IMG/VR virus record: IMGVR_UViG_2563366888_000003
DNA: 19,451 nucleotides
Source of the DNA: a virus
Lineage: Duplodnaviria > Heunggongvirae > Uroviricota > Caudoviricetes
Reading direction: 5' to 3' (one strand)
Every line of letters starts with the position of its first letter. Position 1 is the stretch's first letter. The notes under the pieces are model-generated. The model saw only the letters and a program-made list of their open reading frames with translations. It did no database searches and was not told the DNA's origin. Positions 1-19,451 of this stretch are shown here, piece after piece. The translations under genes were made by a program, and so were the position numbers.

Positions 1-120
1 CCAATCTTTGGAGCAATGGAACAAATTGTCGCCCATTGTGAGTCATATTCGCTCTGACTTTCCAGAACCATACGGACTGCCCGTTGACGGACTTCGGGGG
101 AAAAACGAGTATTTTTAGTC
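1..120 (-). CDS. IS3-family transposase OrfA, N-terminal 40 codons (partial, runs off window start)
   Basis: Minus-strand translation from the ATG at 118-120 gives [41 protein letters not shown], the helix-turn-helix N-terminus typical of IS3-family OrfA (IS629-like). The frame is open to the window edge. Confidence 0.8.
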
Positions 121-176
121 ATCCTGTTTACCTCTTTCTCAGGAAGTTTAGTCTCCAGGATTCCCGGGGCGGTTCA
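1..176 (-). mobile_element. IS3-family insertion sequence (IS629-like), left terminal segment; element continues beyond window start
   Basis: Reverse complement of 121-176 reads TGAACCGCCCCGGGAATCCTGGAGACTAAACTTCCTGAGAAAGAGGTAAACAGGAT followed by the transposase ATG, which I recognise as an IS629-type left end. The element terminus (TGAACC on the minus strand) lies at 171-176. Identification is from memory, not a database search. Confidence 0.75.
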
Positions 177-256
177 GAGATAACAATCAACTAATACTGT
201 TTTGTTGATTTTTGCTTGTAATTGGCGTTCTGGTCTGATTTTTGTGGAGTAAGTTG

Positions 257-640
257 ATGCGTGATATTCAGATGGTTCTTGAGCGTTGGGGAGCGTGGGC
301 GGCTAATAATCATGAAGATGTGACCTGGTCGTCCATTGCCGCCGGTTTTAAGGGATTAATTACTTCAAAAGTAAAATCTCGCCCGCAATGTTGTGACGAT
401 GACGCTATGATCATTTGCGGGTGCATGGCCCGTCTGAAAAAGAACAACAGCGATTTGCACGATTTATTAGTAGATTATTATGTAGTCGGTATGACATTCA
501 TGTCACTGGCAGGTAAGCATTGCTGCTCTGATGGTTATATCGGGAAAAGGTTACAGAAGGCTGAGGGCATAATTGAAGGGATGTTAATGGCATTAGATAT
601 CCAGTTAGAGATGGATATCGTTGTTAATAACTCTAATTAA
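257..640 (+). CDS. Q: Late-gene antiterminator Q (phage 82 / DLP12 QuuD-type), 127 aa
   Basis: Translation [34 protein letters not shown]... with Cys-rich motifs, recognised as a QuuD/Q82-family antiterminator. ATG at 257 chosen with GGAG 8 nt upstream; the six-frame track start at 242 is a TTG. TAA stop at 638-640. Confidence 0.85.
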
Positions 641-660
641 TATGCCAATTGTTTACTAAA

Positions 661-691
661 AATTATTAAAAATGGGGCGTTGAGACGCCCC
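661..691 (-). terminator. Candidate rho-independent terminator for the minus-strand porin transcript
   Basis: GC-rich stem GGGGCG (674-679) / CGCCCC (686-691) with a 6-nt loop. Read on the minus strand the hairpin is followed by ATTTTTAATAA (complement of 663-673). Confidence 0.45.
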
Positions 692-779
692 CAAAAATAA
701 AGGGTAATATATAACAGAAGGTTTATATAGTTAGAAGCAAGGTTGTGCTTCTAAAGGAAGTGGCTTGAGGGAGCCACTT

Positions 780-819
780 ATATGTTGGGGAGGCAACGCC
801 TCCCGCAACATATCTTTTT
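780..819 (+). terminator. Candidate rho-independent terminator on plus strand downstream of Q (tR'-like), lying in the porin 3' UTR
   Basis: Imperfect 15-bp stem ATATGTTGGGGAGGC (780-794) / GCCTCCCGCAACATAT (798-813), loop AAC, followed by CTTTTT (814-819). Confidence 0.4.
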
Positions 820-829
820 CGTAATCAGA

Positions 830-1912
830 TTAGAACTGGTAAACCAGACCTACAGCGACGATGTCGTCGGTATCAATATCAGCTGTTTTGGTAAACTTAC
901 TATCGTCAATTAAGTTGATTTTGTAATCAACAAAAGTGGACATGTTTTTATTAAAGTAGTAAGTAGCACCGACATCGACATACTTGACTAAGTCTCGGTC
1001 ACCATGAACACCAAGGTCTTTACCTTTTGACTGAAGGTAAGCAACAGATGGGCGCAGACCGAAGTCAAACTGATATTGTGCTACTGCTTCAAAGTTTTGT
1101 GCTTTGTTTGCAATATGGTTATTACCAAAAACGGTCATATTCTGAGTTTCAGAATATGTGGTAGCCAGATAGATATTGTTCGCATCATATTTCAGGCCTG
1201 CAGCCCATACTTCCGCATTTTTGCCGGAGGCATTGAATTTGCTCTTACCATAGGCGACCTGACCGTCAGTGCGATCTGATTTAGCATAGGTTGCACCCAC
1301 GCCGAATCCTTCATACTCATAAGTAGTGGAGAAACCGAAACCATCACCATTGGCTTCAGTTACGTCAGTGCGGTCATTTTTACCCTGATACTGAGCAGCA
1401 AAGTTCAGGCCATCGACCAGACCAAAGAAGTCGTTGTTACGATAAGTTGCAACACCAGTAGTGCGACCAGTCATGAACACATCTGTTTGGGTCCAGGTAT
1501 CACCACCGAATTCTGGCAGAACGTCAGTCCACGCACCGATGTCGTATGCTACACCGTAGTTACGGCCGTAATCGATTGAGCCGTAATCACCAAATTTCAG
1601 GCCTGCAAATGCAAGACGGGTTTTGTCTTTGGAAGAACCTTGAGATTCAGCGCGGTTGCCTTTGAATTCATATTCCCACTGACCGAAACCAGTCAGTTGA
1701 TCGTTGATTTGGGTTTCACCTTTGAAGCCAAGACGGGCATAAGTAGTATCACCATCATCTGCATCATTAGAGGAGAAGTAGTGCTTAGCATTAACTTTCC
1801 CGTACAGATCCAGCTTGTTACTGTCTTTATTATAAATTTCAGCTGCCTGAGCAGACATCGCCATCAGTACTGATGCAGCTACAGCAGAAATTGCCACTGT
1901 TAATTTTTTCAT
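830..1912 (-). CDS. nmpC: Phage-encoded general porin (OmpC/PhoE family; Lc of phage PA-2 / NmpC of DLP12 type), 360 aa precursor
   Basis: Translation from the ATG at 1910-1912 begins [23 protein letters not shown] followed by AEIYNKD (signal peptide with AQA cleavage site), carries OmpC-like motifs and ends in the beta-barrel C-terminal motif YQF. The six-frame track ORF extends 20 codons further upstream (to 1972), which I reject in favour of the signal-peptide start. Confidence 0.9.
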
Positions 1913-2340
1913 CGTGAGCCCTTTTTTTGAACTATTATTAAAAAATGATGTCACTGCGCGATAAATATTCATCTAATCAATGTGATTATTTCAAGATGTA
2001 AGTTTTGGTTTCTCGTTTGATTTGTGAAGTAGATCTCTATTTTTATCTGAACTTTTTTCTATCGAATCCTATTCATGGCTCTTGGCTGAATAAAAATAAA
2101 TCTATTAGCCAATTTATATTAATGGCTGTTATTTATAAGTGCTCTATAATTTGAAGGTTCAATTTAAATCGGCTAAAAATAACGCTGGAAATTATTTGTT
2201 GGTTATTTGTTGAGATTTGCTTATGTATTTGTAGTGGTGTTTTCAATACTCGGTAGCATTCTCGCAAATATCATTTAGTGGTTTACGTACGTAAAAAATT
2301 GGTTATGCTGTTAAGAGTGGTTACTTCGTCACACAGCTTA

Positions 2341-2372
2341 AACCCGCCGTCGAGCGGGTTTTTCCATTTTTT
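2341..2372 (+). terminator. Rho-independent terminator upstream of the lysis cassette
   Basis: Stem AACCCGC (2341-2347) / GCGGGTT (2354-2360), loop CGTCGA, followed by TTTCCATTTTTT (2361-2372). Confidence 0.5.
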
Positions 2373-2484
2373 GAGTCTCGATATTAGCTGATAACCCAAT
2401 ACCTGAGTTATTCACTGACTCCGAGTCTGTTACGTTTCGTAGTATTCCCTCAATTTACACCCGCTTTGTCTGCGAGGTGGGGTT

Positions 2485-2700
2485 ATGAAATCCATGGATA
2501 AGTTAACAACGGGTGTCGCCTATGGCACCTCAGCAGGTAGTGCCGGGTACTGGTTTTTACAGCTGCTAGATAAAGTCACGCCCTCACAGTGGGCGGCAAT
2601 TGGAGTGCTGGGTAGCCTGGTATTTGGCCTGCTGACGTACCTGACAAACCTTTATTTCAAGATTAAAGAAGATAAGCGCAAGGCTGCGAGAGGTGAATAA
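2485..2700 (+). CDS. S: Class II holin, phage 21 S21-type pinholin with dual-start motif (antiholin from Met1, holin from Met4)
   Basis: [71 protein letters not shown]: two transmembrane segments, charged C-terminal tail, Met1-Lys-Ser-Met4 dual start. RBS GAGGTGGGG upstream. The stop overlaps the R start (TAATG). Confidence 0.9.
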
Positions 2701-3197
2701 TGCCTCCATCATTACGAAAAGCCGTTGCTGCTGCTATTGGTGGCGGAGCAATTGCTATAGCATCAGTGTTAATTACTGGCCCAAGTGGTAACGATGGTCT
2801 GGAAGGTGTCAGCTACATACCATACAAAGATATTGTTGGTGTATGGACTGTATGTCACGGGCATACAGGAAAAGACATCATGCTCGGTAAAACGTATACC
2901 AAAGCAGAATGCAAAGCACTCTTGAATAAAGACCTTGCCACTGTCGCCAGACAAATTAACCCGTACATCAAAGTCGATATACCGGAAACAACGCGCGGCG
3001 CTCTTTACTCATTCGTTTACAACGTGGGTGCTGGCAATTTCAGAACATCGACGCTTCTTCGCAAAATAAACCAGGGCGATATCAAAGGCGCATGTGATCA
3101 GCTACGTCGCTGGACATATGCTGGCGGTAAGCAATGGAAAGGTCTCATGACTCGTCGTGAGATTGAGCGTGAAATCTGTTTGTGGGGTCAGCAATGA
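2700..3197 (+). CDS. R: SAR endolysin (phage 21 R21-type lysozyme with N-terminal signal-anchor-release domain)
   Basis: Gly/Ala-rich N-terminal segment [20 protein letters not shown] followed by the T4-lysozyme-like catalytic triad positions E35, D44, T50 counted in the translation. Coupled to the holin stop. Confidence 0.9.
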
Positions 3198-3655
3198 ACA
3201 GAGTAACCGCGATTATCTCCGCTCTGGTTATCTGCATCATCGTCTGCCTGTCATGGGCTGTTAATCATTACCGTGATAACGCCATTACCTACAAAGCCCA
3301 GCGCGACAAAAATGCCAGAGAACTGAAGCTGGCGAACGCGGCAATTACTGACATGCAGATGCGTCAGCGTGATGTTGCTGCGCTCGATGCAAAATACACG
3401 AAGGAGTTAGCTGATGCGAAAGCTGAAAATGATGCTCTGCGTGATGATGTTGCCGCTGGTCGTCGTCGGTTGCACATCAAAGCAGTCTGTCAGTCAGTGC
3501 GTGAAGCCACCACCGCCTCCGGCGTGGATAATGCAGCCTCCCCCCGACTGGCAGACACCGCTGAACGGGATTATTTCACCCTCAGAGAGAGGCTGATCAC
3601 TATGCAAAAACAACTGGAAGGAACCCAGAAGTATATTAATGAGCAGTGCAGATAG
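3194..3655 (+). CDS. Rz: Rz i-spanin (inner-membrane spanin subunit)
   Basis: [26 protein letters not shown]... with N-terminal TM segment and coiled-coil periplasmic domain, near-identical to lambda Rz as I recall it. ATG at 3194 overlaps the R stop (ATGA). The track start at 3182 is a GTG. Confidence 0.9.
3414..3596 (+). CDS. Rz1: Rz1 o-spanin lipoprotein, fully embedded in the +1 frame of Rz
   Basis: [24 protein letters not shown]... with lipobox VVGC, Pro-rich mature region [15 protein letters not shown], 60 aa, matching lambda Rz1. Confidence 0.88.
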
Positions 3656-3686
3656 AGCTGCCCATATCGATGGGCAACTCATGCAA

Positions 3687-3980
3687 TTATTGTGAGCAAT
3701 ACACACGCGCTTCCAGCGGAGTATAAATGCCTAAAGTAATAAAACCGAGAAATCCATTTACGAATGTTTGCTGGGTTTCTGTTTTAACAACATTTTCTGC
3801 GCCGCCACAAATTTTGGCTGCATCAACAGTTTTCTCCTGTCCAATTCCCGAAACGAAGAAATGATGGGTGATGGTTTCCTTTGGTGTTACTGCTGTCGGT
3901 TTGTTTCCAACAGTAAACGTCTGTTGAGCACATCCTGTAATAAGCATTGCCAGAGCGGCAGAAAACAACATTTTTTTCAT
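3687..3980 (-). CDS. bor: Bor outer-membrane lipoprotein (serum-resistance moron), 97 aa
   Basis: Translation from the ATG at 3978-3980: MKKMLFSAALAMLITGCAQQTFTV... with lipobox LITGC, near-identical to lambda Bor. The track ORF extends 16 codons upstream; the lipoprotein signal-peptide start was chosen. Confidence 0.9.
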   Translation of the reverse strand: MKKMLFSAALAMLITGCAQQTFTVGNKPTAVTPKETITHHFFVSGIGQEKTVDAAKICGGAENVVKTETQQTFVNGFLGFITLGIYTPLEARVYCSQ

Positions 3981-4341
3981 CTTATTATCCTGCATTGTTA
4001 AAAACGGCAGAATCCTATGTGACAACAATTAAACGATAGTTAAATGGATTGATGAAAATTAAAACTATATAGGTGGATGCTCAGCCTATTGGAGGAGGGG
4101 GGGGCACTCAGAATCCTGTGGAATGAAATAAACCGCTCTATCTGTCCATTACCCTTTTAGCTGCGCTGTATCGTCGCCGTATTCCCGCATTAACCATGAC
4201 CGTAGCCCGACGGGGAATTCCTTCTGCGTGAGTGTGCGGGAATAATCAAAAACGATGCACACCGGGTTTTACTGTGCTGACAGACGCAGGGTTACCCTCA
4301 TAGTCGCTTTTCCGGTGCGATGGTGGAAGAAACCGGGATGT

Positions 4342-4536
4342 TCATCCATCATCACTTTGGATTGATGTATATGCTCTCTTTTCTGACGTTAGTCTCCGAC
4401 GGCAGGCTTCAATGACCCAGGCTGAGAAATTCCCGGACCCTTTTTGCTCAAGAGCGATGTTAATTTGTTCAATCATTTGGTTAGGAAAGCGGATGTTGCG
4501 GGTTGTTGTTCTGCGGGTTCTGTTCTTCGTTGACAT
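4342..4536 (-). CDS. Small conserved cos-proximal protein (DUF3950 / YlcI-like, possible ribbon-helix-helix DNA-binding protein), 64 aa
   Basis: MSTKNRTRRTTTRNIRFPNQMIEQINIALEQKGSGNFSAWVIEACRRRL...; the same small ORF sits at the right end of lambda just before cos, as I recall. Basic N-terminus then a short helix-rich core. Confidence 0.7.
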   Translation of the reverse strand: MSTKNRTRRTTTRNIRFPNQMIEQINIALEQKGSGNFSAWVIEACRRRLTSEKRAYTSIQSDDG

Positions 4537-4699
4537 GAGGTTGCCCCGTATTCAGTGTCGCTGATTTGTATTGTCTGAAGTTGTTTTTACGTTAAGTTGA
4601 TGCAGATCAATTAATACGATACCTGCGTCATAATTGATTATTTGACGTGGTTTGATGGCGTAGATGCACGTTGTGACATGTAGATGATAATTATTATCA

Positions 4700-4905
4700 T
4701 TTTGCGGGTCCTTTCCGGCGATCCGACAGGTTACGGGGCGGCGACCTCGTGGGTTTTCGCTATTTATGAAAATTTTCCGGCTTAAGGCGTTTCCGTTCTT
4801 CTTCGCCGTAACTTCATGTTTTTATTTAAAACACCCCCTAAAAAGAAAGGAAACGACAGGTGCTGAAAACGGGCTTTTTGGCCTCTGTCGTTTCCTTTCT
4901 CTGTT
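4700..4905 (+). other. cos site: cosQ, cosN nicking site (GGGCGGCGACCT at 4736-4747) and cosB with R3 (4788-4799), R2 (4844-4855, inverted) and R1 (4889-4900)
   Basis: The lambda 12-nt cohesive-end sequence GGGCGGCGACCT occurs exactly at 4736-4747, flanked upstream by lambda right-end-like sequence and downstream by three CGTTTCC-type Nu1-binding repeats and an AT-rich IHF-like segment, ending at the Nu1 start. Confidence 0.85.
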
Positions 4906-4924
4906 TTTGGCCGTGGAATGAACA

Positions 4925-5444
4925 ATGGAAGTCAACAAAAAGCAGCTGGCTGACATTTTCGGTGCGAGTATCCGTACCATTCAGAACTGGCAGGAACAGG
5001 GAATGCCCGTTCTGCGAGGCGGTGGCAAGGGTAATGAGGTGCTTTATGACTCTGCCGCCGTTATAAAATGGTATGCCGAAAGGGATGCTGAAATTGAGAA
5101 CGAAAAGCTGCGCCGGGAGGTTGAAGAACTGCGGCAGGCCCGCGAGGCAGATCTCCAGCCAGGGACTATTGAGTACGAACGCCATCGACTTACGCGTGCG
5201 CAGGCCGACGCACAGGAACTGAAGAATGCCAGAGACTCCGCTGAAGTGGTGGAAACCGCATTCTGTACTTTCGTGCTGTCGCGGATCGCAGGTGAAATTG
5301 CCAGTATTCTCGACGGGATCCCCCTGTCGGTGCAGCGGCGTTTTCCGGAACTGGAAAACCGACATGTTGATTTCCTGAAACGGGATATCATCAAAGCCAT
5401 GAACAAAGCAGCCGCGCTGGATGAACTGATACCGGGGTTGCTGA

Positions 5445-5470
<26 letters not shown>
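4925..5470 (+). CDS. nu1: Terminase small subunit Nu1
   Basis: MEVNKKQLADIFGASIRTIQNWQEQGMPVLRGGGKGNEVLYDS... near-identical to lambda gpNu1 (winged HTH N-terminus), 181 aa. Confidence 0.95.
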
Positions 5471-9151
<3,681 letters not shown>

Positions 9152-9171
<20 letters not shown>

Positions 9172-10471
9172 TCTCCCGCATATTGCCAGCATGGCCTTTA
9201 ATGAGCCGCTGATGCTTGAACCCGCCTATGCGCGGGTTTTCTTTTGTGCGCTTGCAGGCCAGCTTGGGATCAGCCGCCTGACGGATGCGGTGTCCGGTGA
9301 CAGCCTGACTGCCGGAGAGGCACCCGCGACGCTGGCGTTATCCGTTAATGATGACGGACCACGACAGGCCCGCAGTTATCAGGTCATGAATGGCATCGCC
9401 GTGCTGCCGGTTTCCGGCACGCTGGTCAGCCGGACGCGGGCGCTGCAGCCGTATTCGGGGATGACCGGTTACAACGGCATTATCGCCCGTCTGCAACAGG
9501 CTGCCAGTGACCCGATGGTGGACGGCATTCTGCTGGATATGGACACGCCAGGCGGAATGGTGGCGGGGGCATTTGACTGCGCTGACATCATCGCCCGTGT
9601 GCGTGACATAAAACCGGTATGGGCGCTGGCCAACGACATGAACTGCAGTGCAGGTCAGCTGCTTGCCAGTGCCGCCTCCCGGCGTCTGGTCACGCAGACC
9701 GCCCGGACAGGCTCCATCGGCGTCATGATGGCTCACAGTAATTACGGTGCTGCCCTGGAGAAACAGGGTGTGGAAATCACGCTGATTTACAGCGGCAGCC
9801 ATAAGGTGGATGGCAATCCCTACAGCCATCTTCCGGATGACGTCCGGGAGACACTGCAGTCCCGGATGGACGCAACCCGCCAGATGTTTGCGCAGAAGGT
9901 GTCGGCATATACCGGCCTGTCTGTGCAGGCTGTGCTGGATACCGAGGCTGCAGTGTACAGCGGTCAGGAGGCCATTGATGCCGGACTGGCTGATGAACTT
10001 GTTAACAGCACCGATGCGATCACCGTCATGCGTGATGCACTGGATGCGCGTAAATCCCGTCTCTCAGGAGGGCGAATGACCAAAGAGACTCAATCAACAA
10101 CTGTTTCAGCCACTGCTTCGCAGGCTGACGTTACTGACGTGGTGCCAGCGACGGAGGGCGAAAACGCCAGCGCGGCGCAGCCGGACGTGAACGCGCAGAT
10201 CACCGCAGCGGTTGCGGCAGAAAACAGCCGCATTATGGGGATCCTCAACTGTGAGGAGGCTCACGGACGCGAAGAACAGGCGCGCGTTCTGGCAGAAACC
10301 CCCGGAATGACCGTGGAAACGGCCCGCCGCATTCTGGCTGCAGCACCACAGAGTGCACAGGCGCGCAGTGACACTGCGCTGGATCGTCTGATGCAGGGGG
10401 CACCGGCACCGCTGGCTGCAGGTAACCCGGCATCTGATGCCGTTAACGATTTGCTGAACACACCAGTGTAA
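9152..10471 (+). CDS. C: Capsid maturation protease / minor capsid protein C (GTG start)
   Basis: GTG at 9152 gives (M)TAELRNLPHIASMAFNEPLMLEPAYARVFF..., matching lambda gpC. It overlaps the B 3' end. The longer track ORF from 9005 is upstream read-in within B. Confidence 0.9.
9866..10471 (+). CDS. nu3: Scaffolding protein Nu3, in-frame internal start within C
   Basis: Internal ATG at 9866 in the C frame gives MDATRQMFAQKVSAYTGLSVQ..., 201 aa, as for lambda Nu3, sharing the C stop. Confidence 0.8.
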   Translation: MDATRQMFAQKVSAYTGLSVQAVLDTEAAVYSGQEAIDAGLADELVNSTDAITVMRDALDARKSRLSGGRMTKETQSTTVSATASQADVTDVVPATEGENASAAQPDVNAQITAAVAAENSRIMGILNCEEAHGREEQARVLAETPGMTVETARRILAAAPQSAQARSDTALDRLMQGAPAPLAAGNPASDAVNDLLNTPV

Positions 10472-10480
10472 GGGATGTTT

Positions 10481-10813
10481 ATGACGAGCAAAGAAACCTT
10501 TACCCATTACCAGCCGCTGGGCAACAGTGACCCGGCTCATACCGCAACCGCGCCCGGCGGATTGAGTGCGAAAGCGCCTGCAATGACCCCGCTGATGCTG
10601 GACACCTCCACCCGTAAGCTGGTTGCGTGGGATGGCACCACCGACGGTGCTGCCGTTGGCATTCTGGCGGTTGCTGCTGACCAGACCAGCACCACGCTGA
10701 CGTTCTACAAGTCCGGCACGTTCCGTTATGAGGATGTGCTCTGGCCGGAGGCTGCCAGCGACGAGACGAAAAAACGGACCGCGTTTGCCGGAACGGCAAT
10801 CAGCATCGTTTAA
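10481..10813 (+). CDS. D: Head decoration protein D
   Basis: [41 protein letters not shown]..., 110 aa, matches lambda gpD. ATG at 10481; the track start 10475 is two codons upstream. Confidence 0.93.
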
Positions 10814-10830
10814 CTTTACCCTTCATCACT

Positions 10831-10855
10831 AAAGGCCGCCTGTGCGGCTTTTTTT
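10831..10855 (+). terminator. Terminator-like hairpin with U-tract in the D-E intergenic spacer
   Basis: Stem GCCGC (10835-10839) / GCGGC (10844-10848), extendable by A-T pairs, loop CTGT, followed by TTTTTTT (10849-10855), 14 nt before the E start codon. Confidence 0.4.
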
Positions 10856-10868
10856 ACGGGATTTTTTT

Positions 10869-11894
10869 ATGTCGATGTACACAACCGCCCAGCTGCTGGC
10901 GGCAAATGAGCAGAAATTTAAGTTTGATCCGCTGTTTCTGCGTCTCTTTTTCCGTGAGAGCTATCCCTTCACTACGGAGAAAGTCTATCTCTCACAAATT
11001 CCGGGACTGGTAAACATGGCGCTGTACGTTTCGCCGATTGTTTCCGGTGAGGTTATCCGTTCCCGTGGCGGCTCCACCTCTGAATTTACGCCGGGATATG
11101 TCAAGCCGAAGCATGAAGTGAATCCGCAGATGACCCTGCGTCGCCTGCCGGATGAAGATCCGCAGAATCTGGCGGACCCGGCTTACCGCCGCCGTCGCAT
11201 CATCATGCAGAACATGCGTGACGAAGAGCTGGCCATTGCTCAGGTCGAAGAGATGCAGGCAGTTTCTGCCGTGCTTAAGGGCAAATACACCATGACCGGT
11301 GAAGCCTTCGATCCGGTTGAGGTGGATATGGGCCGCAGTGAGGAGAATAACATCACGCAGTCCGGCGGCACGGAGTGGAGCAAGCGTGACAAGTCCACGT
11401 ATGACCCGACCGACGATATCGAAGCCTACGCGCTGAACGCCAGCGGTGTGGTGAATATCATCGTGTTCGATCCGAAAGGCTGGGCGCTGTTCCGTTCCTT
11501 CAAAGCCGTCAAGGAGAAGCTGGATACCCGTCGCGGCTCTAATTCCGAGCTGGAGACAGCGGTAAAAGACCTGGGCGAAGCGGTGTCCTATAAGGGAATG
11601 TATGGCGATACGGCGATCGTCGTGTATTCCGGACAGTACGTGGAAAACGACGTCAAAAAGAACTTCCTGCCGGACAACACGATGGTGCTGGGGAACACTC
11701 AGGCACGCGGTCTGCGCACCTATGGCTGCATTCAGGATGCGGACGCACAGCGCGAAGGTATTAACGCCTCTGCCCGCTACCCGAAAAACTGGGTGACCAC
11801 CGGCGATCCGGCGCGTGAGTTCACCATGATTCAGTCAGCACCGCTGATGCTGCTGGCTGACCCTGATGCGTTCGTGTCCGTACAACTGGCGTAA
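10869..11894 (+). CDS. E: Major capsid protein E
   Basis: MSMYTTAQLLAANEQKFKFDPLFLRLFFRESYPFTTEKVYL..., 341 aa, matches lambda gpE. The track ORF start at 10842 lies inside the upstream hairpin and is rejected. Confidence 0.95.
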   Translation: MSMYTTAQLLAANEQKFKFDPLFLRLFFRESYPFTTEKVYLSQIPGLVNMALYVSPIVSGEVIRSRGGSTSEFTPGYVKPKHEVNPQMTLRRLPDEDPQNLADPAYRRRRIIMQNMRDEELAIAQVEEMQAVSAVLKGKYTMTGEAFDPVEVDMGRSEENNITQSGGTEWSKRDKSTYDPTDDIEAYALNASGVVNIIVFDPKGWALFRSFKAVKEKLDTRRGSNSELETAVKDLGEAVSYKGMYGDTAIVVYSGQYVENDVKKNFLPDNTMVLGNTQARGLRTYGCIQDADAQREGINASARYPKNWVTTGDPAREFTMIQSAPLMLLADPDAFVSVQLA

Positions 11895-11935
11895 TCATGG
11901 CCCTTCGGGGCCATTTTCTCTCTGTGGAGGAGTCC

Positions 11936-12334
11936 ATGACGAAAGATGAACTGATTGCCCGTCTCCGGTCGCTGGGTGAACAACTGAACCGTGATGTCAG
12001 CCTGACGGGGACGAAAGAAGAACTGGCGCTCCGTGTGGCAGAGCTGGAAGAGGAGCTTGATGACACGGATGAAACTGCCGGTCAGGACACCCCTCTCAGC
12101 CGGGAAAATGTGCTGACCGGACATGAAAATGAGGTGGGATCAGCGCAGCCGGATACCGTGATTCTGGATACGTCTGAACTGGTCACGGTCGTGGCACTGG
12201 TGAAGCTGCATACTGATGCACTTCACGCCACGCGGGATGAACCTGTGGCATTTGTGCTGCCGGGAACGGCGTTTCGTGTCTCTGCCGGTGTGGCAGCCGA
12301 AATGACAGAGCGCGGCCTGGCCAGAATGCAATAA
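11936..12334 (+). CDS. FI: DNA-packaging accessory protein FI
   Basis: MTKDELIARLRSLGEQLNRDVSLTGTKEELALRVAELEEELDD..., 132 aa, RBS GGAGGAG upstream. Matches lambda gpFI. Confidence 0.92.
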   Translation: MTKDELIARLRSLGEQLNRDVSLTGTKEELALRVAELEEELDDTDETAGQDTPLSRENVLTGHENEVGSAQPDTVILDTSELVTVVALVKLHTDALHATRDEPVAFVLPGTAFRVSAGVAAEMTERGLARMQ

Positions 12335-12345
12335 CGGGAGGCGCT

Positions 12346-12699
12346 GTGGCTGATTTCGATAACCTGTTCGATGCTGCCATTGCCCGCGCCGATGAAACGA
12401 TACGCGGGTACATGGGAACGTCAGCCACCATGACATCCGGTGAGCAGTCAGGTGCGGTGATACGTGGTGTTTTTGATGACCCTGAAAATATCAGCTATGC
12501 CGGACAGGGCGTGCGCGTTGAAGGCTCCAGCCCGTCCCTGTTTGTCCGGACTGATGAGGTGCGGCAGCTGCGGCGTGGAGACACGCTGACCATCGGTGAG
12601 GAAAATTTCTGGGTAGATCGGGTTTCGCCGGATGATGGCGGAAGTTGTCATCTCTGGCTTGGACGGGGCGTACCGCCTGCCGTTAACCGTCGCCGCTGA
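12346..12699 (+). CDS. FII: Head completion / head-tail connector protein FII
   Basis: 117 aa, MADFDNLFDAAIARADETIRGYMGTSATMTSGEQ..., matches lambda gpFII. Confidence 0.92.
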   Translation: MADFDNLFDAAIARADETIRGYMGTSATMTSGEQSGAVIRGVFDDPENISYAGQGVRVEGSSPSLFVRTDEVRQLRRGDTLTIGEENFWVDRVSPDDGGSCHLWLGRGVPPAVNRRR

Positions 12700-12710
12700 A
12701 AGGGGGATGT

Positions 12711-13289
12711 ATGGCCATAAAAGGTCTTGAGCAGGCCGTTGAAAACCTCAGCCGTATCAGCAAAACGGCGGTGCCCGGTGCCGCCGCAATGGCCATTAAC
12801 CGCGTTGCTTCATCCGCGATATCGCAGTCTGCGTCACAGGTTGCCCGTGAGACAAAGGTACGCCGGAAACTGGTAAAGGAAAGGGCCAGGCTGAAAAGGG
12901 CCACGGTCAAAAATCCGCAGGCCAGAATCAAAGTTAACCGGGGGGATTTGCCCGTAATCAAGCTGGGTAATGCGCGGGTTGTCCTGTCCCGCCGCAGGCG
13001 TCGTAAAAAGGGGCAGCGTTCATCCCTGAAAGGTGGCGGCAGCGTGCTTGTGGTGGGTAACCGTCGTATTCCCGGCGCGTTTATTCAGCAACTGAAAAAC
13101 GGCCGGTGGCATGTTATGCAGCGTGTGGCCGGGAAAAACCGTTACCCCATTGATGTGGTGAAAATCCCGATGGCGGTGCCGCTGACCACGGCGTTTAAAC
13201 AGAATATTGAGCGGATACGGCGTGAACGTCTTCCGAAAGAGCTGGGCTATGCGCTGCAGCATCAACTGAGGATGGTAATAAAGCGATGA
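12711..13289 (+). CDS. Z: Tail completion protein Z
   Basis: 192 aa, MAIKGLEQAVENLSRISKTAVPGAAAMAINRVASS..., matches lambda gpZ. Confidence 0.92.
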   Translation: MAIKGLEQAVENLSRISKTAVPGAAAMAINRVASSAISQSASQVARETKVRRKLVKERARLKRATVKNPQARIKVNRGDLPVIKLGNARVVLSRRRRRKKGQRSSLKGGGSVLVVGNRRIPGAFIQQLKNGRWHVMQRVAGKNRYPIDVVKIPMAVPLTTAFKQNIERIRRERLPKELGYALQHQLRMVIKR

Positions 13290-13681
13290 AACATACTGAA
13301 CTCCGTGCAGCCGTACTGGATGCACTGGAGAAGCATGACACCGGGGCGACGTTTTTTGATGGTCGCCCCGCTGTTTTTGATGAGGCGGATTTTCCGGCAG
13401 TTGCCGTTTATCTCACCGGCGCTGAATACACGGGCGAAGAGCTGGACAGCGATACCTGGCAGGCGGAGCTGCATATCGAAATTTTCCTGCCTGCTCAGGT
13501 GCCGGATTCAGAGCTGGATGCGTGGATGGAGTCCCGGATTTATCCGGTGATGAGCGATATCCCGGCACTGTCAGATTTGATCACCAGTATGGTGGTCAGT
13601 GGCTATGACTACCGGCGCGACGATGATGCGGGCCTGTGGAGTTCAGCCGATATGACTTATGTCATTACCTATGAAATGTGA
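13286..13681 (+). CDS. U: Tail terminator protein U
   Basis: 131 aa, [37 protein letters not shown]..., ATGA overlap with Z. Matches lambda gpU. Confidence 0.92.
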
Positions 13682-13688
13682 GGACGCT

Positions 13689-14429
13689 ATGCCTGTACCA
13701 AATCCTACAATGCCGGTGAAAGGTGCCGGGACCACCCTGTGGGTTTATAAGGGGAGCGGTGACCCTTATGCGAATCCGCTTTCAGACGTTGACTGGTCGC
13801 GTCTGGCAAAAGTTAAAGACCTGACGCCCGGCGAACTGACCGCTGAGTCCTATGACGACAGCTATCTCGATGATGAAGATGCAGACTGGACTGCGACCGG
13901 GCAGGGGCAGAAATCTGCCGGAGATACCAGCTTCACGCTGGCGTGGATGCCCGGAGAGCAGGGGCAGCAGGCGCTGCTGGCGTGGTTTAATGAAGGCGAT
14001 ACCCGTGCCTATAAAATCCGCTTCCCGAACGGCACGGTCGATGTGTTCCGTGGCTGGGTCAGCAGTATCGGTAAGGCGGTGACGGCGAAGGAAGTGATCA
14101 CCCGCACGGTGAAAGTCACCAATGTGGGCCGTCCGTCGATGGCAGAAGATCGCAGCACGGTAACAGCGGCAACCGGCATGACCGTGACGCCTGCCAGCAC
14201 CTCGGTGGTGAAAGGGCAGAGCACCACGCTGACCGTGGCCTTCCAGCCGGAGGGCGTAACCGACAAGAGCTTTCGTGCGGTGTCTGCGGATAAAACAAAA
14301 GCCACCGTGTCGGTCAGTGGTATGACCATCACCGTGAACGGCGTTGCTGCAGGCAAGGTCAACATTCCGGTTGTATCCGGTAATGGTGAACTTGCTGCGG
14401 TTGCAGAAATCACCGTCACCGACAGTTAA
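13689..14429 (+). CDS. V: Major tail tube protein V (with C-terminal Ig-like domain)
   Basis: [31 protein letters not shown]..., 246 aa, RBS GAGGA upstream. The track start 13659 is rejected in favour of the lambda-equivalent ATG at 13689. Confidence 0.93.
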
Positions 14430-14444
14430 TCCGGAGAGTCAGCG

Positions 14445-14867
14445 ATGTTCCTGAAAACCGAATCATTTGAACATAACGGCGTGACCGTCACGCTTTCTGA
14501 ACTGTCAGCCCTGCAGCGTATTGAGCATCTTGCCTGGTTGAAAGAGCAGGAAAAAAAGGCTGAATCCAGTGGCAACCTGCAGGTGTCTGTAGAGGCGCTT
14601 ATCAGAGGCGGGGCGTTTCTGGTGGCGATGTCTCTGTGGCATAACCATCCACAGAAGACAAAGCTGCCGTCCATGAATGAAGCCATTACGCAGATTGAGC
14701 AGGAAGTGCTTACCACCTGGCCCACGGAGGCAATTGCTCAGGCTGAAAACGTGGTGTTACGTCTGTCCGGAATGTCTGAGTTTGTGGTGAATAATGCCCC
14801 TGAACAGGCAGAGGACGCCGGGCCTGCAGAGCCTGTTTCTGCGGGAAAGTGTTCGACGGTGAGCTGA
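14445..14867 (+). CDS. G: Tail assembly chaperone G
   Basis: MFLKTESFEHNGVTVTLSELSALQRIEHLAWLKEQ..., 140 aa, matches lambda gpG. Contains the slippery heptamer near its 3' end. Confidence 0.92.
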   Translation: MFLKTESFEHNGVTVTLSELSALQRIEHLAWLKEQEKKAESSGNLQVSVEALIRGGAFLVAMSLWHNHPQKTKLPSMNEAITQIEQEVLTTWPTEAIAQAENVVLRLSGMSEFVVNNAPEQAEDAGPAEPVSAGKCSTVS

Positions 14868-15283
14868 GTTTTGCCCTGAAACTGGCGCGTGAGATGGGGC
14901 GACCCGACTGGCGCGCCATGCTTGCCGGGATGTCATCCACGGAGTATGCCGACTGGCACCGCTTTTACAGTACCCATTATTTTCATGATGTTCTGCTGGA
15001 TATGCACTTTTCCGGGCTGACGTACACCGTACTCAGCCTGTTTTTCAGCGATCCGGATATGCATCCGCTGGATTTCAGTCTGCTGAACCGGCGCGAGGCT
15101 GACGAAGAGCCTGAAGATGATGTGCTGATGCAGAAAGCGGCAGGGCTTGCCGGAGGCGTTCGTTTTGGCCCGGACGGGAATGAAGTTATCCCCGCTTCCC
15201 CGGATGTGGCGGACATGACGGAGGATGACGTAATGCTGATGACAGTATCAGAAGGGATCGCAGGAGGAGTCCGGTATGGCTGA
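14445..15283 (+). CDS. GT: Tail assembly chaperone fusion G-T produced by programmed -1 ribosomal frameshift
   Basis: Slippery heptamer GGGAAAG at 14843-14849, 5 codons before the G stop. The -1 frame (track ORF 14849..15283) stays open to 15283 and overlaps the H start, exactly as in lambda G/GT. Confidence 0.85.
14843..14849 (+). other. Programmed -1 frameshift slippery site GGGAAAG (G to GT)
   Basis: The heptamer is seen directly at 14843-14849, and the downstream -1 frame is open for about 144 codons. Confidence 0.85.
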
Positions 15284-17831
15284 ACCGGTAGGCGATCTGG
15301 TCGTTGATTTGAGTCTGGATGCGGCCAGATTTGACGAGCAGATGGCCAGAGTCAGGCGTCATTTTTCCGGTACGGAAAGTGATGCGAAAAAAACAGCGGC
15401 AGTCGTTGAACAGTCGCTGAGCCGACAGGCGCTGGCTGCACAGAAAGCGGGGATTTCCGTCGGGCAGTATAAAGCCGCCATGCGTATGCTGCCTGCACAG
15501 TTCACCGACGTGGCCACGCAGCTTGCAGGCGGGCAAAGTCCGTGGCTGATCCTGCTGCAACAGGGTGGTCAGGTTAAGGACTCCTTCGGCGGGATGATCC
15601 CCATGTTCAGGGGGCTTGCCGGTGCGATCACCCTGCCGATGGTGGGGGCCACCTCGCTGGCGGTGGCGACCGGTGCGCTGGCGTATGCCTGGTATCAGGG
15701 CAACTCAACCCTGTCCGATTTCAACAAAACGCTGGTCCTTTCCGGCAATCAGGCGGGACTGACGGCAGATCGTATGCTGGTCCTGTCCAGAGCCGGGCAG
15801 GCGGCAGGGCTGACGTTTAACCAGACCAGCGAGTCACTCAGCGCACTGGTTAAGGCGGGGGTAAGCGGTGAGGCTCAGATTGCGTCCATCAGCCAGAGTG
15901 TGGCGCGTTTCTCCTCTGCATCCGGCGTGGAGGTGGACAAGGTCGCTGAAGCCTTCGGGAAGCTGACCACAGACCCGACGTCGGGGCTGACGGCGATGGC
16001 ACGCCAGTTCCATAACGTGACGGCGGAGCAGATTGCGTATGTTGCTCAGTTGCAGCGTTCCGGCGATGAAGCCGGGGCATTGCAGGCGGCGAACGAGGCC
16101 GCAACGAAAGGGTTTGATGACCAGACCCGCCGCCTGAAAGAGAACATGGGCACGCTGGAGACCTGGGCAGACAGGACAGCGCGGGCATTCAAATCCATGT
16201 GGGATGCGGTGCTGGATATTGGTCGTCCTGATACCGCGCAGGAGATGCTGATTAAGGCAGAGGCTGCGTTTAAGAAAGCAGACGACATCTGGAATCTGCG
16301 CAAGGATGATTATTTTGTTAACGATGAAGCGCGGGCGCGTTACTGGGATGATCGTGAAAAGGCCCGTCTTGCGCTTGAAGCCGCCCGAAAGAAGGCTGAG
16401 CAGCAGACTCAACAGGACAAAAATGCGCAGCAGCAGAGCGATACCGAAGCGTCACGGCTGAAATATACCGAAGAGGCGCAGAAGGCTTACGAACGGCTGC
16501 AGACGCCGCTGGAGAAATATACCGCCCGTCAGGAAGAACTGAACAAGGCACTGAAAGACGGGAAAATCCTGCAGGCGGATTACAACACGCTGATGGCGGC
16601 GGCGAAAAAGGATTATGAGTCGACGCAGAAAAAGCCGTCCGGCGTGAAGGTGTCTGCGGGCGATCGTCAGGAAGACAGTGCTCATGCTGCCCTGCTGACG
16701 CTTCAGGCAGAACTCCGGACGCTGGAGAAGCATGCCGGAGCGAATGAGAAAATCAGCCAGCAGCGCCGGGATTTGTGGAAGGCAGAAAGTCAGTTCGCGG
16801 TACTGGAGGAGGCGGCACAACGTCGCCAGCTGTCCGCACAGGAGAAATCCCTGCTGGCGCATAAAGATGAGACGCTGGAGTACAAACGCCAGCTGGCTGC
16901 ACTTGGCGATAAGGTCACGTATCAGGAGCGCCTGAACGCGCTGGCGCAGCAAGCGGATAAATTCGCACAGCAGCAACGGGCAAAACGGGCCGCTATTGAT
17001 GCGAAAAGCCGGGGGCTGACTGACCGGCAGGCAGAACGGGAAGCCACGGAACAGCGCCTGAAGGAACAGTATGGCGATAATCCTCTGGCGCTGAATAACG
17101 TCATGTCAGAGCAGAAAAAGACCTGGGCGGCTGAAGACCTGCTTCGCGGGAGCTGGATGGCAGGCCTCAGGTCCGGCTGGAGCGAGTGGAAAGAGAGTGC
17201 CACGGACAGTATGTTGCAGGTTAAAAGTGCAGCCACGCAGACCTTTGATGGTATTGCGCAGAATATGGCGGCGATGCTGACCGGCAGTGAGCAGAACTGG
17301 CGCAGCTTCACCCGTTCCGTGCTGTCCATGATGACAGAAATTCTGCTTAAGCAGGCAATGGTGGGGATTGTCGGGAGTATCGGCAGCGCCATTGGCGGTG
17401 CTGTTGGTGGCGGCGAATCCGCGTCAGGCGGTACAGCCATTCAGGCAGCTGCGGCGAAATTCCATTTTGCGACCGGAGGATTTACGGGAACCGGCGGCAA
17501 ATATGAGCCAGCGGGGATTGTTCATCGTGGTGAATTTGTCTTCACGAAGGAGGCTACCAGCCGGATTGGTGTCGGCAACCTGTACCGCCTGATGCGGGGC
17601 TATGCGGAAGGTGGTTATGTGGGCGGTGCCGGAAGTCCGGCGCAGATGCGGCGGGCTGAAGGCATTAATTTTAATCAGAACAATCACGTGGTGATTCAGA
17701 ACGACGGTACGAATGGTCTGCCAGGTCCACAGATGATGAAGGCAGTGTATGACATGGCCCGCAAGGGTGCCCGTGATGAAATTCAGACACAGATGCGTGA
17801 TGGTGGCCTGTTCTCCGGAGGTGGACGATGA
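15276..17831 (+). CDS. H: Tail tape measure protein H
   Basis: 851-aa ORF, MAEPVGDLVVDLSLDAARFDEQMARVRRHFSG..., long coiled-coil central region with Gly-rich C-terminal part. Near-identical to lambda gpH. Confidence 0.95.
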   Translation: MAEPVGDLVVDLSLDAARFDEQMARVRRHFSGTESDAKKTAAVVEQSLSRQALAAQKAGISVGQYKAAMRMLPAQFTDVATQLAGGQSPWLILLQQGGQVKDSFGGMIPMFRGLAGAITLPMVGATSLAVATGALAYAWYQGNSTLSDFNKTLVLSGNQAGLTADRMLVLSRAGQAAGLTFNQTSESLSALVKAGVSGEAQIASISQSVARFSSASGVEVDKVAEAFGKLTTDPTSGLTAMARQFHNVTAEQIAYVAQLQRSGDEAGALQAANEAATKGFDDQTRRLKENMGTLETWADRTARAFKSMWDAVLDIGRPDTAQEMLIKAEAAFKKADDIWNLRKDDYFVNDEARARYWDDREKARLALEAARKKAEQQTQQDKNAQQQSDTEASRLKYTEEAQKAYERLQTPLEKYTARQEELNKALKDGKILQADYNTLMAAAKKDYESTQKKPSGVKVSAGDRQEDSAHAALLTLQAELRTLEKHAGANEKISQQRRDLWKAESQFAVLEEAAQRRQLSAQEKSLLAHKDETLEYKRQLAALGDKVTYQERLNALAQQADKFAQQQRAKRAAIDAKSRGLTDRQAEREATEQRLKEQYGDNPLALNNVMSEQKKTWAAEDLLRGSWMAGLRSGWSEWKESATDSMLQVKSAATQTFDGIAQNMAAMLTGSEQNWRSFTRSVLSMMTEILLKQAMVGIVGSIGSAIGGAVGGGESASGGTAIQAAAAKFHFATGGFTGTGGKYEPAGIVHRGEFVFTKEATSRIGVGNLYRLMRGYAEGGYVGGAGSPAQMRRAEGINFNQNNHVVIQNDGTNGLPGPQMMKAVYDMARKGARDEIQTQMRDGGLFSGGGR

Positions 17832-18157
17832 AAACCTTCCGCTGGAAAGTGAAACCCGGTATGGATGTGGCTTCGGCCCCTTCTGTAAGAAAGGTGCGCT
17901 TTGGTGATGGCTATTCCCAGCGAGCGCCTGCCGGGCTGAATGCCAACCTGAAAACGTACAGCGTGACGCTTTCTGTCCCCCGTGAGGAGGCCACGGTACT
18001 GGAGTCGTTTCTGGAAGAGCACGGGGGCTGGAAAGCCTTTCTGTGGACGCCGCCTTATGAGTGGCGGCAGATAAAGGTGACCTGCGCAAAATGGTCGTCG
18101 CGGGTCAGTATGCTGCGTGTTGAGTTCAGCGCAGAGTTTGAACAGGTGGTGAACTGA
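17828..18157 (+). CDS. M: Tail tip assembly protein M
   Basis: 109 aa, MKTFRWKVKPGMDVASAPSVRKVRFGDGYSQRAP..., ATGA overlap with H. Matches lambda gpM. Confidence 0.93.
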   Translation: MKTFRWKVKPGMDVASAPSVRKVRFGDGYSQRAPAGLNANLKTYSVTLSVPREEATVLESFLEEHGGWKAFLWTPPYEWRQIKVTCAKWSSRVSMLRVEFSAEFEQVVN

Positions 18158-18855
18158 TGCAGGATATCCGGCAGGAAACACTGAATGAATGCACCCGTGC
18201 GGAGCAGTCGGCCAGCGTGGTGCTCTGGGAAATCGACCTGACAGAGGTCGGTGGAGAACGTTATTTTTTCTGTAATGAGCAGAACGAAAAAGGTGAGCCG
18301 GTCACCTGGCAGGGGCGACAGTATCAGCCGTATCCCATTCAGGGGAGTGGTTTTGAACTGAATGGCAAAGGCACCAGTACGCGCCCCACGCTGACGGTTT
18401 CTAACCTGTACGGTATGGTCACCGGTATGGTGGAAGATCTGCAGAGTCTGGTCGGCGGAACGGTGGTCCGGCGTAAGGTTTACGCCCGTTTTCTGGATGC
18501 GGTGAACTTCGTCAACGGAAACAGTGACGCCGATCCGGAGCAGGAGGTGATCAGCCGCTGGCGCATCGAGCAGTGCAGCGAACTGAGCGCGGTGAGTGCC
18601 TCCTTTGTACTGTCCACGCCGACGGAAACGGATGGCGCTGTTTTTCCGGGGCGTATCATGCTGGCCAACACCTGCACCTGGACCTATCGCGGCGATGAGT
18701 GCGGTTATCACGGTCCGGCAGTCGCTGATGAATATGACCAGCCGACGTCCGATATCACGAAGGATAAATGCAGCAAATGCCTGAGCGGCTGTAAGTTTCG
18801 CAATAACGTCGGCAATTTTGGCGGCTTCCTTTCCATTAACAAACTTTCGCAGTAA
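18157..18855 (+). CDS. L: Tail tip protein L
   Basis: 232 aa, MQDIRQETLNECTRAEQSASVVLWEIDLTEVGGERYFF... with C-terminal Cys cluster. Matches lambda gpL. Confidence 0.93.
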   Translation: MQDIRQETLNECTRAEQSASVVLWEIDLTEVGGERYFFCNEQNEKGEPVTWQGRQYQPYPIQGSGFELNGKGTSTRPTLTVSNLYGMVTGMVEDLQSLVGGTVVRRKVYARFLDAVNFVNGNSDADPEQEVISRWRIEQCSELSAVSASFVLSTPTETDGAVFPGRIMLANTCTWTYRGDECGYHGPAVADEYDQPTSDITKDKCSKCLSGCKFRNNVGNFGGFLSINKLSQ

Positions 18856-18860
18856 ATACC

Positions 18861-19451
18861 ATGACAGAGACAGAATCAGCGATTCTGGCGCACGCCCGGC
18901 GATGTGCGCCAGCGGAGTCGTGCGGCTTCGTGGTGAGAGCGCCGGAGGGGGAAAGATATTTTCCCTGCGTGAATATTTCCGGTGAGCCGGAGGATTATTT
19001 CCGGATGGCTCCGGAGGACTGGCTGCAGGCAGAGATGCAGGGTGAGATTGTGGCGCTGGTCCACAGCCACCCCGGTGGTCTGCCCTGGCTGAGTGAGGCT
19101 GACCGGCGGCTGCAGGTGCAGAGTGATTTGCCGTGGTGGCTGGTCTGCCGGGGGACGATTCATAAATTCCGCTGTGTGCCGCATCTCACCGGGCGGCGCT
19201 TTGAGCACGGGGTGACGGACTGTTACACGCTGTTCCGGGATGCTTATCATCTGGCGGGAATTGAGATGCCGGATTTTCATCGCGAGGATGACTGGTGGCG
19301 TCACGGTCAGAATCTCTATCTGGATAATCTGGAGGCCACAGGGCTGTATCAGGTGCCGTTGTCATCAGCACAACCGGGCGATGTGCTGCTGTGCTGTTTT
19401 GGTTCATCGGTGCCGAATCATGCCGCCATTTACTGTGGTGATGGCGAGCTG
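18861..19451 (+). CDS. K: Tail tip assembly protein K (JAMM/MPN-type motif region; partial, 3' end beyond window). The conventional lambda K start corresponds to the internal ATG at 19005
   Basis: Open frame from the ATG at 18861, 6 nt after the L stop, continuous to the window end. It contains HSHPGGLPWLSEAD (JAMM-like H-x-H-x7-S-x2-D) and matches lambda gpK from MAPEDWLQAEMQGEIVALVHSHPGG onward. Not in the six-frame track, presumably because no stop falls inside the window. Confidence 0.8.
   Translation, partial: MTETESAILAHARRCAPAESCGFVVRAPEGERYFPCVNISGEPEDYFRMAPEDWLQAEMQGEIVALVHSHPGGLPWLSEADRRLQVQSDLPWWLVCRGTIHKFRCVPHLTGRRFEHGVTDCYTLFRDAYHLAGIEMPDFHREDDWWRHGQNLYLDNLEATGLYQVPLSSAQPGDVLLCCFGSSVPNHAAIYCGDGEL

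Follow-up and report, generated by a model that had tools for sequence, protein, structure and literature searches.

What follows for a lambda-like prophage when an insertion sequence (IS) comes to lie directly in front of its late-gene antiterminator? The question is raised by a 19,451-nt stretch of DNA (the window, meaning the whole stretch that was analyzed), which opens inside an IS and continues through the Q gene into the late region. Our reading, to which we give a probability of roughly 0.7, is that an IS629/IS1203-type element has inserted into a lambda-like prophage with a 171-bp deletion, and that expression of Q and the late genes is probably reduced or delayed. The features of the window on which the argument depends are these:

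Positions 1 to 176, minus strand: transposase-proximal (IRL) end of an IS629/IS1203-type element of the IS3 family, from identity to annotated copies.
Positions 3 to 122, minus strand: first 40 codons of orfA, the HTH part of the transposase, from translation.
Positions 152 to 176, minus strand: terminal inverted repeat IRL, TGAACCGCCCCGGGAATCCTGGAGA on the minus strand, from both IS ends compared side by side.
Positions 177 to 256, plus strand: 80-bp remnant of the 85-bp ylcG-quuD spacer, with the Q ribosome-binding site GGAG at 247 to 250; identical to IS-free alleles.
Positions 257 to 640, plus strand: late-gene antiterminator Q, QuuD type, intact, from a PF06530 match.
Positions 641 to 19451, plus strand: remaining late region through gpL and the start of gpK, with 100.0% identity to VR50 803944-823221.
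Positions 830 to 1912, minus strand: porin moron, within the late region.

The identity of the element is clear from its end. Window positions 1 to 176 match IS3-family copies annotated IS629/IS1203 in 3,606 of 5,426 complete E. coli genomes, where more than 1,000 records reach at least 99% identity. Hundreds of E. coli copies are 100% identical over these 176 nt; among them are H41, H42 and H45, annotated as "IS3-like element IS629 family transposase", and a complete 1310-bp copy in DLI.6n, which ends with this sequence. Copies that match all 176 nt have a length of 1310 bp, and their annotation includes a programmed frameshift and rve domains; full-length copies of this IS are listed as programmed-frameshift IS3-family transposases. 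For the complete LD22-1 copies that bear the name IS1203, identity is 96.1%, and a 700-nt junction query (IS end plus quuD) gave a 97% match to B20123, annotated IS629. The IS sequence stops with ...CCCGGGGCGGTTCA at position 176, the reverse complement of the IS terminus TGAACCGCCCCGGG. At full length, positions 152 to 176 finish ...TCTCCAGGATTCCCGGGGCGGTTCA, whose reverse complement is the terminal inverted repeat of an IS3-family element. The sequence TGAACCGCCCCGGG... is also present at position 8391 of the source scaffold (L014), where it is the IRR, and the element has imperfect terminal inverted repeats of the form 5'-TG...CA-3'. With the ends of ten IS copies compared side by side, the source scaffold included, IRL and IRR are alike, by reading, at 23 of 25 positions. 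The orfA ATG lies at 122 on the minus strand and opens a 40-aa fragment; its match to Pfam HTH_Tnp_1 (E = 0.0013) is below the curated cutoff, because only these 40 codons are in the window. Since orfA starts at 122 on the minus strand, the end at 176 is the IRL and the transposase is directed away from Q. The original prediction of an IS629-like IS3-family element ending at 176, about 80 bp before Q and with its transposase pointing away from it, was therefore correct in identity, coordinates and orientation.

The opening of the window inside the IS has a technical cause. Calculated from the coordinates of the record, the window corresponds to KE136920.1:1335457-1354907 in the draft E. coli assembly GCA_000408145.1; L014 from 9745 equals the window at 10,640 of 10,640 comparable positions, and a run of 1294 N (L014 8451-9744) lies directly to the left of window position 1. 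The window is the final contig of the scaffold, and its right edge, within gpK, is the scaffold's last base. Both window edges are assembly breaks in repeats and not biological boundaries. The assembly gap at which the window begins accounts for the cut in the IS at position 1; the element is not truncated in the genome. Leftward extension, which had been proposed as the way to find the other IS end, succeeded: across the gap the source scaffold carries the matching opposite inverted repeat, reading ...ggtgggaggctggaac|TGAACCGCCCCGGGTTTCCTGGAGAGTG... or, at greater length, ...ccaaaggtgggaggctggaac|TGAACCGCCCCGGGTTTCCTGGAGAGTGTTTTATC.... This is an IRR oriented as for one IS, and it is fused to codon 112 of rusA. 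With the opposite inverted repeat in place on the left, positions 1 to 176 are no stray remnant.

How much of an IS lies between these ends? A single copy would need 1074 nt of the gap, and the assembler's estimate of 1294 nt, about 220 nt more, is compatible with one copy and is no proof of it. Because the IS body falls in the gap, we infer an intact single element rather than read it, and the scaffold join rests on the assembler's read pairing. The two contigs might accordingly not be joined by one IS, the structure being an assembly artefact or a larger rearrangement, such as an inversion or translocation between IS copies to another locus, or more than one element in the gap. We consider this very unlikely. 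Both contigs do break within a multicopy repeat, the estimated gap does exceed the length that one IS requires, and a related strain has a group II intron within its IS629 at almost the same place. However, the two ends are an IRR and an IRL in the sole orientation that fits one element, their positions on the reference are separated by 171 bp and agree in order and strand, and the gap estimate differs from expectation by only those ~220 nt. We take the IS to be most likely complete at 1310 bp and antiparallel to Q.

The nature of the lesion emerges from IS-free alleles. VR50, which is IS-free upstream of quuD, is 100.0% identical to the window over positions 174-19451, and the complete prophage is present, IS-free, at loci L008-L010, in assemblies GCA_000408725.1, GCA_019047905.1 and GCA_024768455.1. 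In the VR50 locus (L004) the left flank of the source stops at 20776 and the right flank starts at 20948; the intervening 171 bp of the IS-free allele have given way to the IS, whose flanks keep their strand and order. The lost 171 bp comprise the last 8 rusA codons with the stop codon, the entire 141-bp ylcG and 5 bp at the start of the 85-bp spacer. The direct consequences are a RusA whose native sequence extends through residue 112 (...GGRLEL) and is followed by an IS-encoded tail in place of TITEMGNE, the loss of YlcG, and a Q gene that is unchanged, together with its ribosome-binding site and the downstream late genes. Comparison with IS-free alleles had been suggested as a means to name the interrupted gene, and to this extent it gave an answer, the 3' end of rusA and ylcG, but it yielded no clean target site.

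In related prophages, sibling copies of the same IS type are simple insertions, with 3-bp duplications at five sites:

ATT, between P and ren, in DLI.6n and SW070919.
GGG, in rusA, in DAM.
GGG, in ylcG, in LD22-1 and 23CRST050.
GTG, in ninX, in S1-CAM-02-A.
ACA, in rusA, in 118UI.

At the source junctions the flanks read ...ggaac| and |gagata..., and the 3-4 bp target-site duplication that the original prediction expected there is absent (aac vs gag). A simple insertion with such a duplication, about 80 bp before Q and with nothing else interrupted, would agree with the positions of the IS end and of Q and with the behavior of the sibling copies. Yet the other IS end adjoins rusA codon 112, the flanks are unlike, and 171 bp of the IS-free allele are gone; these observations contradict a simple insertion, which we regard as extremely improbable. 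Given the loss of 171 bp and the lack of a target duplication, the structure is that of an insertion plus adjacent deletion, or of recombination between IS copies. The missing duplication is accounted for by the deletion and is no evidence against membership in the IS3 family.

A deletion of this kind has precedent. Adjacent deletion that leaves the IS intact is a described class for IS629 (Kusumoto et al. 2011, as summarized in PMC9330008), and IS3 readily produces adjacent deletions (PMC8860574). The source locus has the corresponding structure, with no duplication and with flanks that are collinear but non-adjacent, the intactness of the IS being deduced as above. A simple IS insertion at one of the two junctions would have come first, and a transposase-mediated adjacent deletion would then have removed the 171 bp with the IS retained. 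Alternatively, two direct IS copies could have recombined. The end product is alike in both cases, and insertion followed by deletion is the most likely order of events. We also considered an origin from the P/ren copy, as found in DLI.6n and SW070919, by rightward deletion, and rejected it, as the P/ren site of the source is uninterrupted.

The ends of the lost segment have a feature of their own. Its first and last 3 nt (tga...tca; L004 20777-20779 and 20945-20947) are the same as the IS tips, TGA...TCA, and each breakpoint is therefore ambiguous by 3 nt. By eye, the left end of the segment is also like the inverted repeat at ~8 of 12 positions. The identity between tips and segment ends is probably a coincidence.

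The junction itself appears in no other record that we searched. A 38-mer across positions 163-200, which spans the exact junction, had no match in species-representative genomes, IMG/VR or JGI metagenomes, and the exact junction was absent by megablast from the 5,426 complete E. coli genomes. Among these collections it is private to the source assembly, and it constitutes an allele, not a new kind of element.

Apart from this lesion, the prophage is well preserved. In complete genomes it occupies the lambda attachment site, flanked by ybhC/ybhJ and by ybhB-bioA; its host here is a non-O157 draft genome, matched most closely by VR50 and DLI.6n. From recT to the truncated rusA, the 8,390 bp left of the IS are 100% identical to DLI.6n and show no indels relative to the IS-free loci L008-L010. 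The order in this region is recT, gam, kil, the S24 repressor gene, a cro-like gene, ydaT, O, P, the nin genes and the truncated rusA. To the right of the IS, Q is a protein of 127 aa that matches PF06530 (Phage_antitermQ) over the full length of the profile (residues 1-118 of 118, E = 3e-53). It is identical to WP_001405603.1 of VR50 and DLI.6n, and the gene is annotated quuD in identical RefSeq sequence. The IS-free gene order, rusA-ylcG-quuD-porin-essD-rrrD-rzpD, puts it where a Q-family gene is expected, between the nin region and the lysis cassette. The late region holds the lysis genes essD, rrrD and rzpD, an iss/bor gene, and the terminase, portal, head and tail genes. That the Q, lysis and morphogenesis genes are intact, as had been supposed, is borne out by the 100.0% identity to VR50, in which none of the CDS from quuD to gpL is flagged. 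Judged from sequence, then, the immunity and replication genes of the source prophage (leftward to recT) are intact, as are its late genes from Q through gpL.

Some further observations concern the late region and its relatives. Two morons lie on the minus strand within the late operon: the porin gene, of the OmpC/NmpC type, between Q and the holin gene, and iss/bor at ~3687-3980, a serum-resistance lipoprotein gene that follows the lysis cassette. The VR50 annotation of the identical sequence shows each of them as intact. A GC-rich hairpin, GGGGCGTTGAGACGCCCC, occupies 674-691, in the interval where quuD and the porin gene converge; it has a terminator score on the minus strand only, the T-run being on that side, and it falls where the late promoter and Q-utilization site would be expected. 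In the DLI.6n prophage, which is 99.9% identical, the IS66-family element ISCro1 interrupts the major capsid gene (L003 26234-28849). This is a second, independent inactivating IS event in the same prophage lineage.

With Q and its ribosome-binding site unchanged, any effect on Q would have to come from transcription. Early rightward transcripts would now cross 1.3 kb of antisense IS before Q. When the locus is reconstructed with a full IS copy, the ORF that begins as rusA ends ~161 nt into the IS, and 1,229 nt separate its stop codon from the Q ATG. The ~1.2 kb of antisense IS RNA before Q is presumably untranslated and would be a classic Rho substrate. Rho-dependent polarity would lower or delay Q, and hence the expression of the lysis and virion genes after induction.

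Might the IS itself supply a promoter for Q? A scan of the Q-ward strand of the full IS copy found no sigma-70-like site directed toward Q. The sole promoter-like site toward Q in window positions 1-256 is a weak TTGACG-17-GAGTAT at 84-112, which agrees with the consensus at only 8 of 12 positions, its -10 being poor. IS3-family elements have an outward -35 in the IRR and an inward -10 in the IRL (PMC9330008), and the end that faces Q is the IRL. Scans of the 80-bp spacer (177-256) found no convincing promoter and no terminator, and its fold is no better than that of shuffled sequences (z = -0.62). Nor did the 171-bp deletion remove a persuasive promoter, the only candidate in the lost segment being a weak TTGACC-15-AAGAAT inside ylcG. 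With the IRL facing Q and no convincing Q-ward promoter, a polar block on Q is plausible.

The strength of such a block would depend on the polymerase that arrives at the IS. A near-consensus boxA, CGCTCTTTAACAA, lies at L014 2986-2998, between the cro-like (YdaS-type) gene, from which 13 nt separate it, and ydaT, which follows after 45 nt; the position is equivalent to that of nutR. Polymerase modified at boxA by Nus factors resists Rho, so that read-through into Q may persist. Lambda N suppresses IS polarity, and N-modified polymerase transcribes through IS elements. We found no N-type gene between the repressor and kil genes of the source locus and no obvious boxB hairpin near the boxA, and the 20-kb source locus had no match in Rfam. 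A boxA without a recognizable N gene in the leftward operon may point to N-independent antitermination based on Nus factors.

These findings bear on a different outcome, in which the structure is as described but functionally near-silent, with Q still sufficient and the prophage not made cryptic by the IS. Read-through could be provided by boxA and Nus factors or by an unrecognized antiterminator, or Q could be served by a weak promoter in the IS. The boxA at the nutR-equivalent position, the weak promoter candidate at 84-112 and the general ability of N-modified polymerase to cross IS elements speak for this, as does the Q-ward strand of the full IS, where a terminator scan found only a 5-bp stem at the IRR and nothing else of note. 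Moreover, IS629-bearing prophages of O157 are reportedly still inducible. Against it stand the lack of an N homologue and of a boxB hairpin in the source locus, the poor -10 of the promoter candidate and the long, presumably untranslated RNA that would be open to Rho. We therefore hold a near-silent insertion to be possible but rather unlikely. Taking the parts separately, a substantial reduction of Q and late expression has, in our estimate, somewhat better than even odds, and near-normal Q and late function a distinctly smaller chance. For the source strain, the reading of a polar insertion plus deletion predicts intact immunity, replication and late genes together with a late switch that is perhaps uncoupled from induction.

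The same prophage backbone (at least 99.5% identical; L003, L004, L005 and L008-L014) exists in several states: IS-free, with an IS between P and ren, and with the IS at rusA/Q, as in the source. Other members carry IS-bounded deletions, in which the segment from ydaT to ybcN is gone (L013) or the whole left arm is gone (VR50 and L011). Near-identical prophages with differing IS positions and deletions form a natural series for stepwise decay. Within it, the source lesion is an ordinary and well-documented step of IS-driven prophage decay and calls for no new mechanism.

An IS also lies close to Q in B20123, a 97% identical relative, where it bounds a deletion that extends from gam to 77 bp before Q. 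The element there (L001 2597-6176) is an IS629 with a group II intron (ltrA); its junction is at 6176, GGTTCA|ataacaatc, and its other end is fused to a truncated gam, the entire immunity-replication-nin region being deleted. We rejected B20123 as an instance of the same event: its IS end is 3 bp further right than that of the window and belongs to a much larger gam-to-Q deletion, and the two are therefore independent. Their proximity could reflect a local target preference, in a sample that is biased by collection. In LD22-1 (L016) and 23CRST050 (L022) the IS occupies one ylcG site, ccaccgctggg|IS|gggggcgtctg, while the Q genes differ (384 vs 378 bp); this is either shared ancestry of the segment or repeated use of one target. 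A broader proposal would be that the 250 bp upstream of QuuD-type Q genes, made up of the rusA 3' end, ylcG and the spacer, are a preferred landing zone for IS629-type elements, with independent events at several sites and, in the unrelated strains of the window and B20123, two IS ends 3 bp apart; that Q is cut off recurrently from the early operon; and that this disarming of prophages is possibly selected; the late genes and the morons (porin and iss) may then be retained after disarming, and the 3-nt identities between IS tips and segment ends could hint at targeting by end mimicry. We regard this proposal as improbable. An apparent orientation bias of IS copies near quuD was discarded as an artefact, as the search joins only pieces arranged as in the query.

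Several known systems resemble this locus in part. IS629 is reported to be the main driver of variation within Stx2a phage types, among prophages that are otherwise identical, with insertions in roi, lysozyme and methyltransferase genes (PMC4587872). The source prophage is like the IS629-bearing lambdoid prophages of O157:H7 and other STEC in its IS type, in its lambda-like host element, and in combining gene disruption with small deletions. Unlike those cases, it has a non-O157 host, occupies the lambda attachment site and carries a Q of the DLP12 type. As in the adjacent deletions of IS629 that are promoted by transposase and IEE (PMC9330008) and in those of IS3 (PMC8860574), the IS is kept, there is no duplication, and the flanks are non-adjacent and in the same orientation; in contrast, only 171 bp are lost here, and the mechanism is deduced from the end product alone.

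Around Q, the gene order matches that of DLP12 of E. coli K-12, with rusA, ylcG, quuD, an opposite-strand porin gene and a lysis cassette. Unlike the cryptic DLP12, the source prophage has retained genes for immunity, replication and morphogenesis. The rusA gene of K-12 is quiescent, and an IS2 or IS10 inserted upstream activates it (PMC1636454), so that IS elements rewire transcription in this very region. In those cases the IS provides a promoter into the downstream gene, whereas the IRL that faces Q in the source has no known outward promoter. The source locus is also like the classical polar IS insertions in lambda and the gal operon, in that an IS lies between a promoter and distal genes and polarity hinges on whether the polymerase has been modified for antitermination. 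The classical insertions are relieved by N antitermination; unlike the classical lambda case, the source prophage has no identified N gene and only a boxA-like site.
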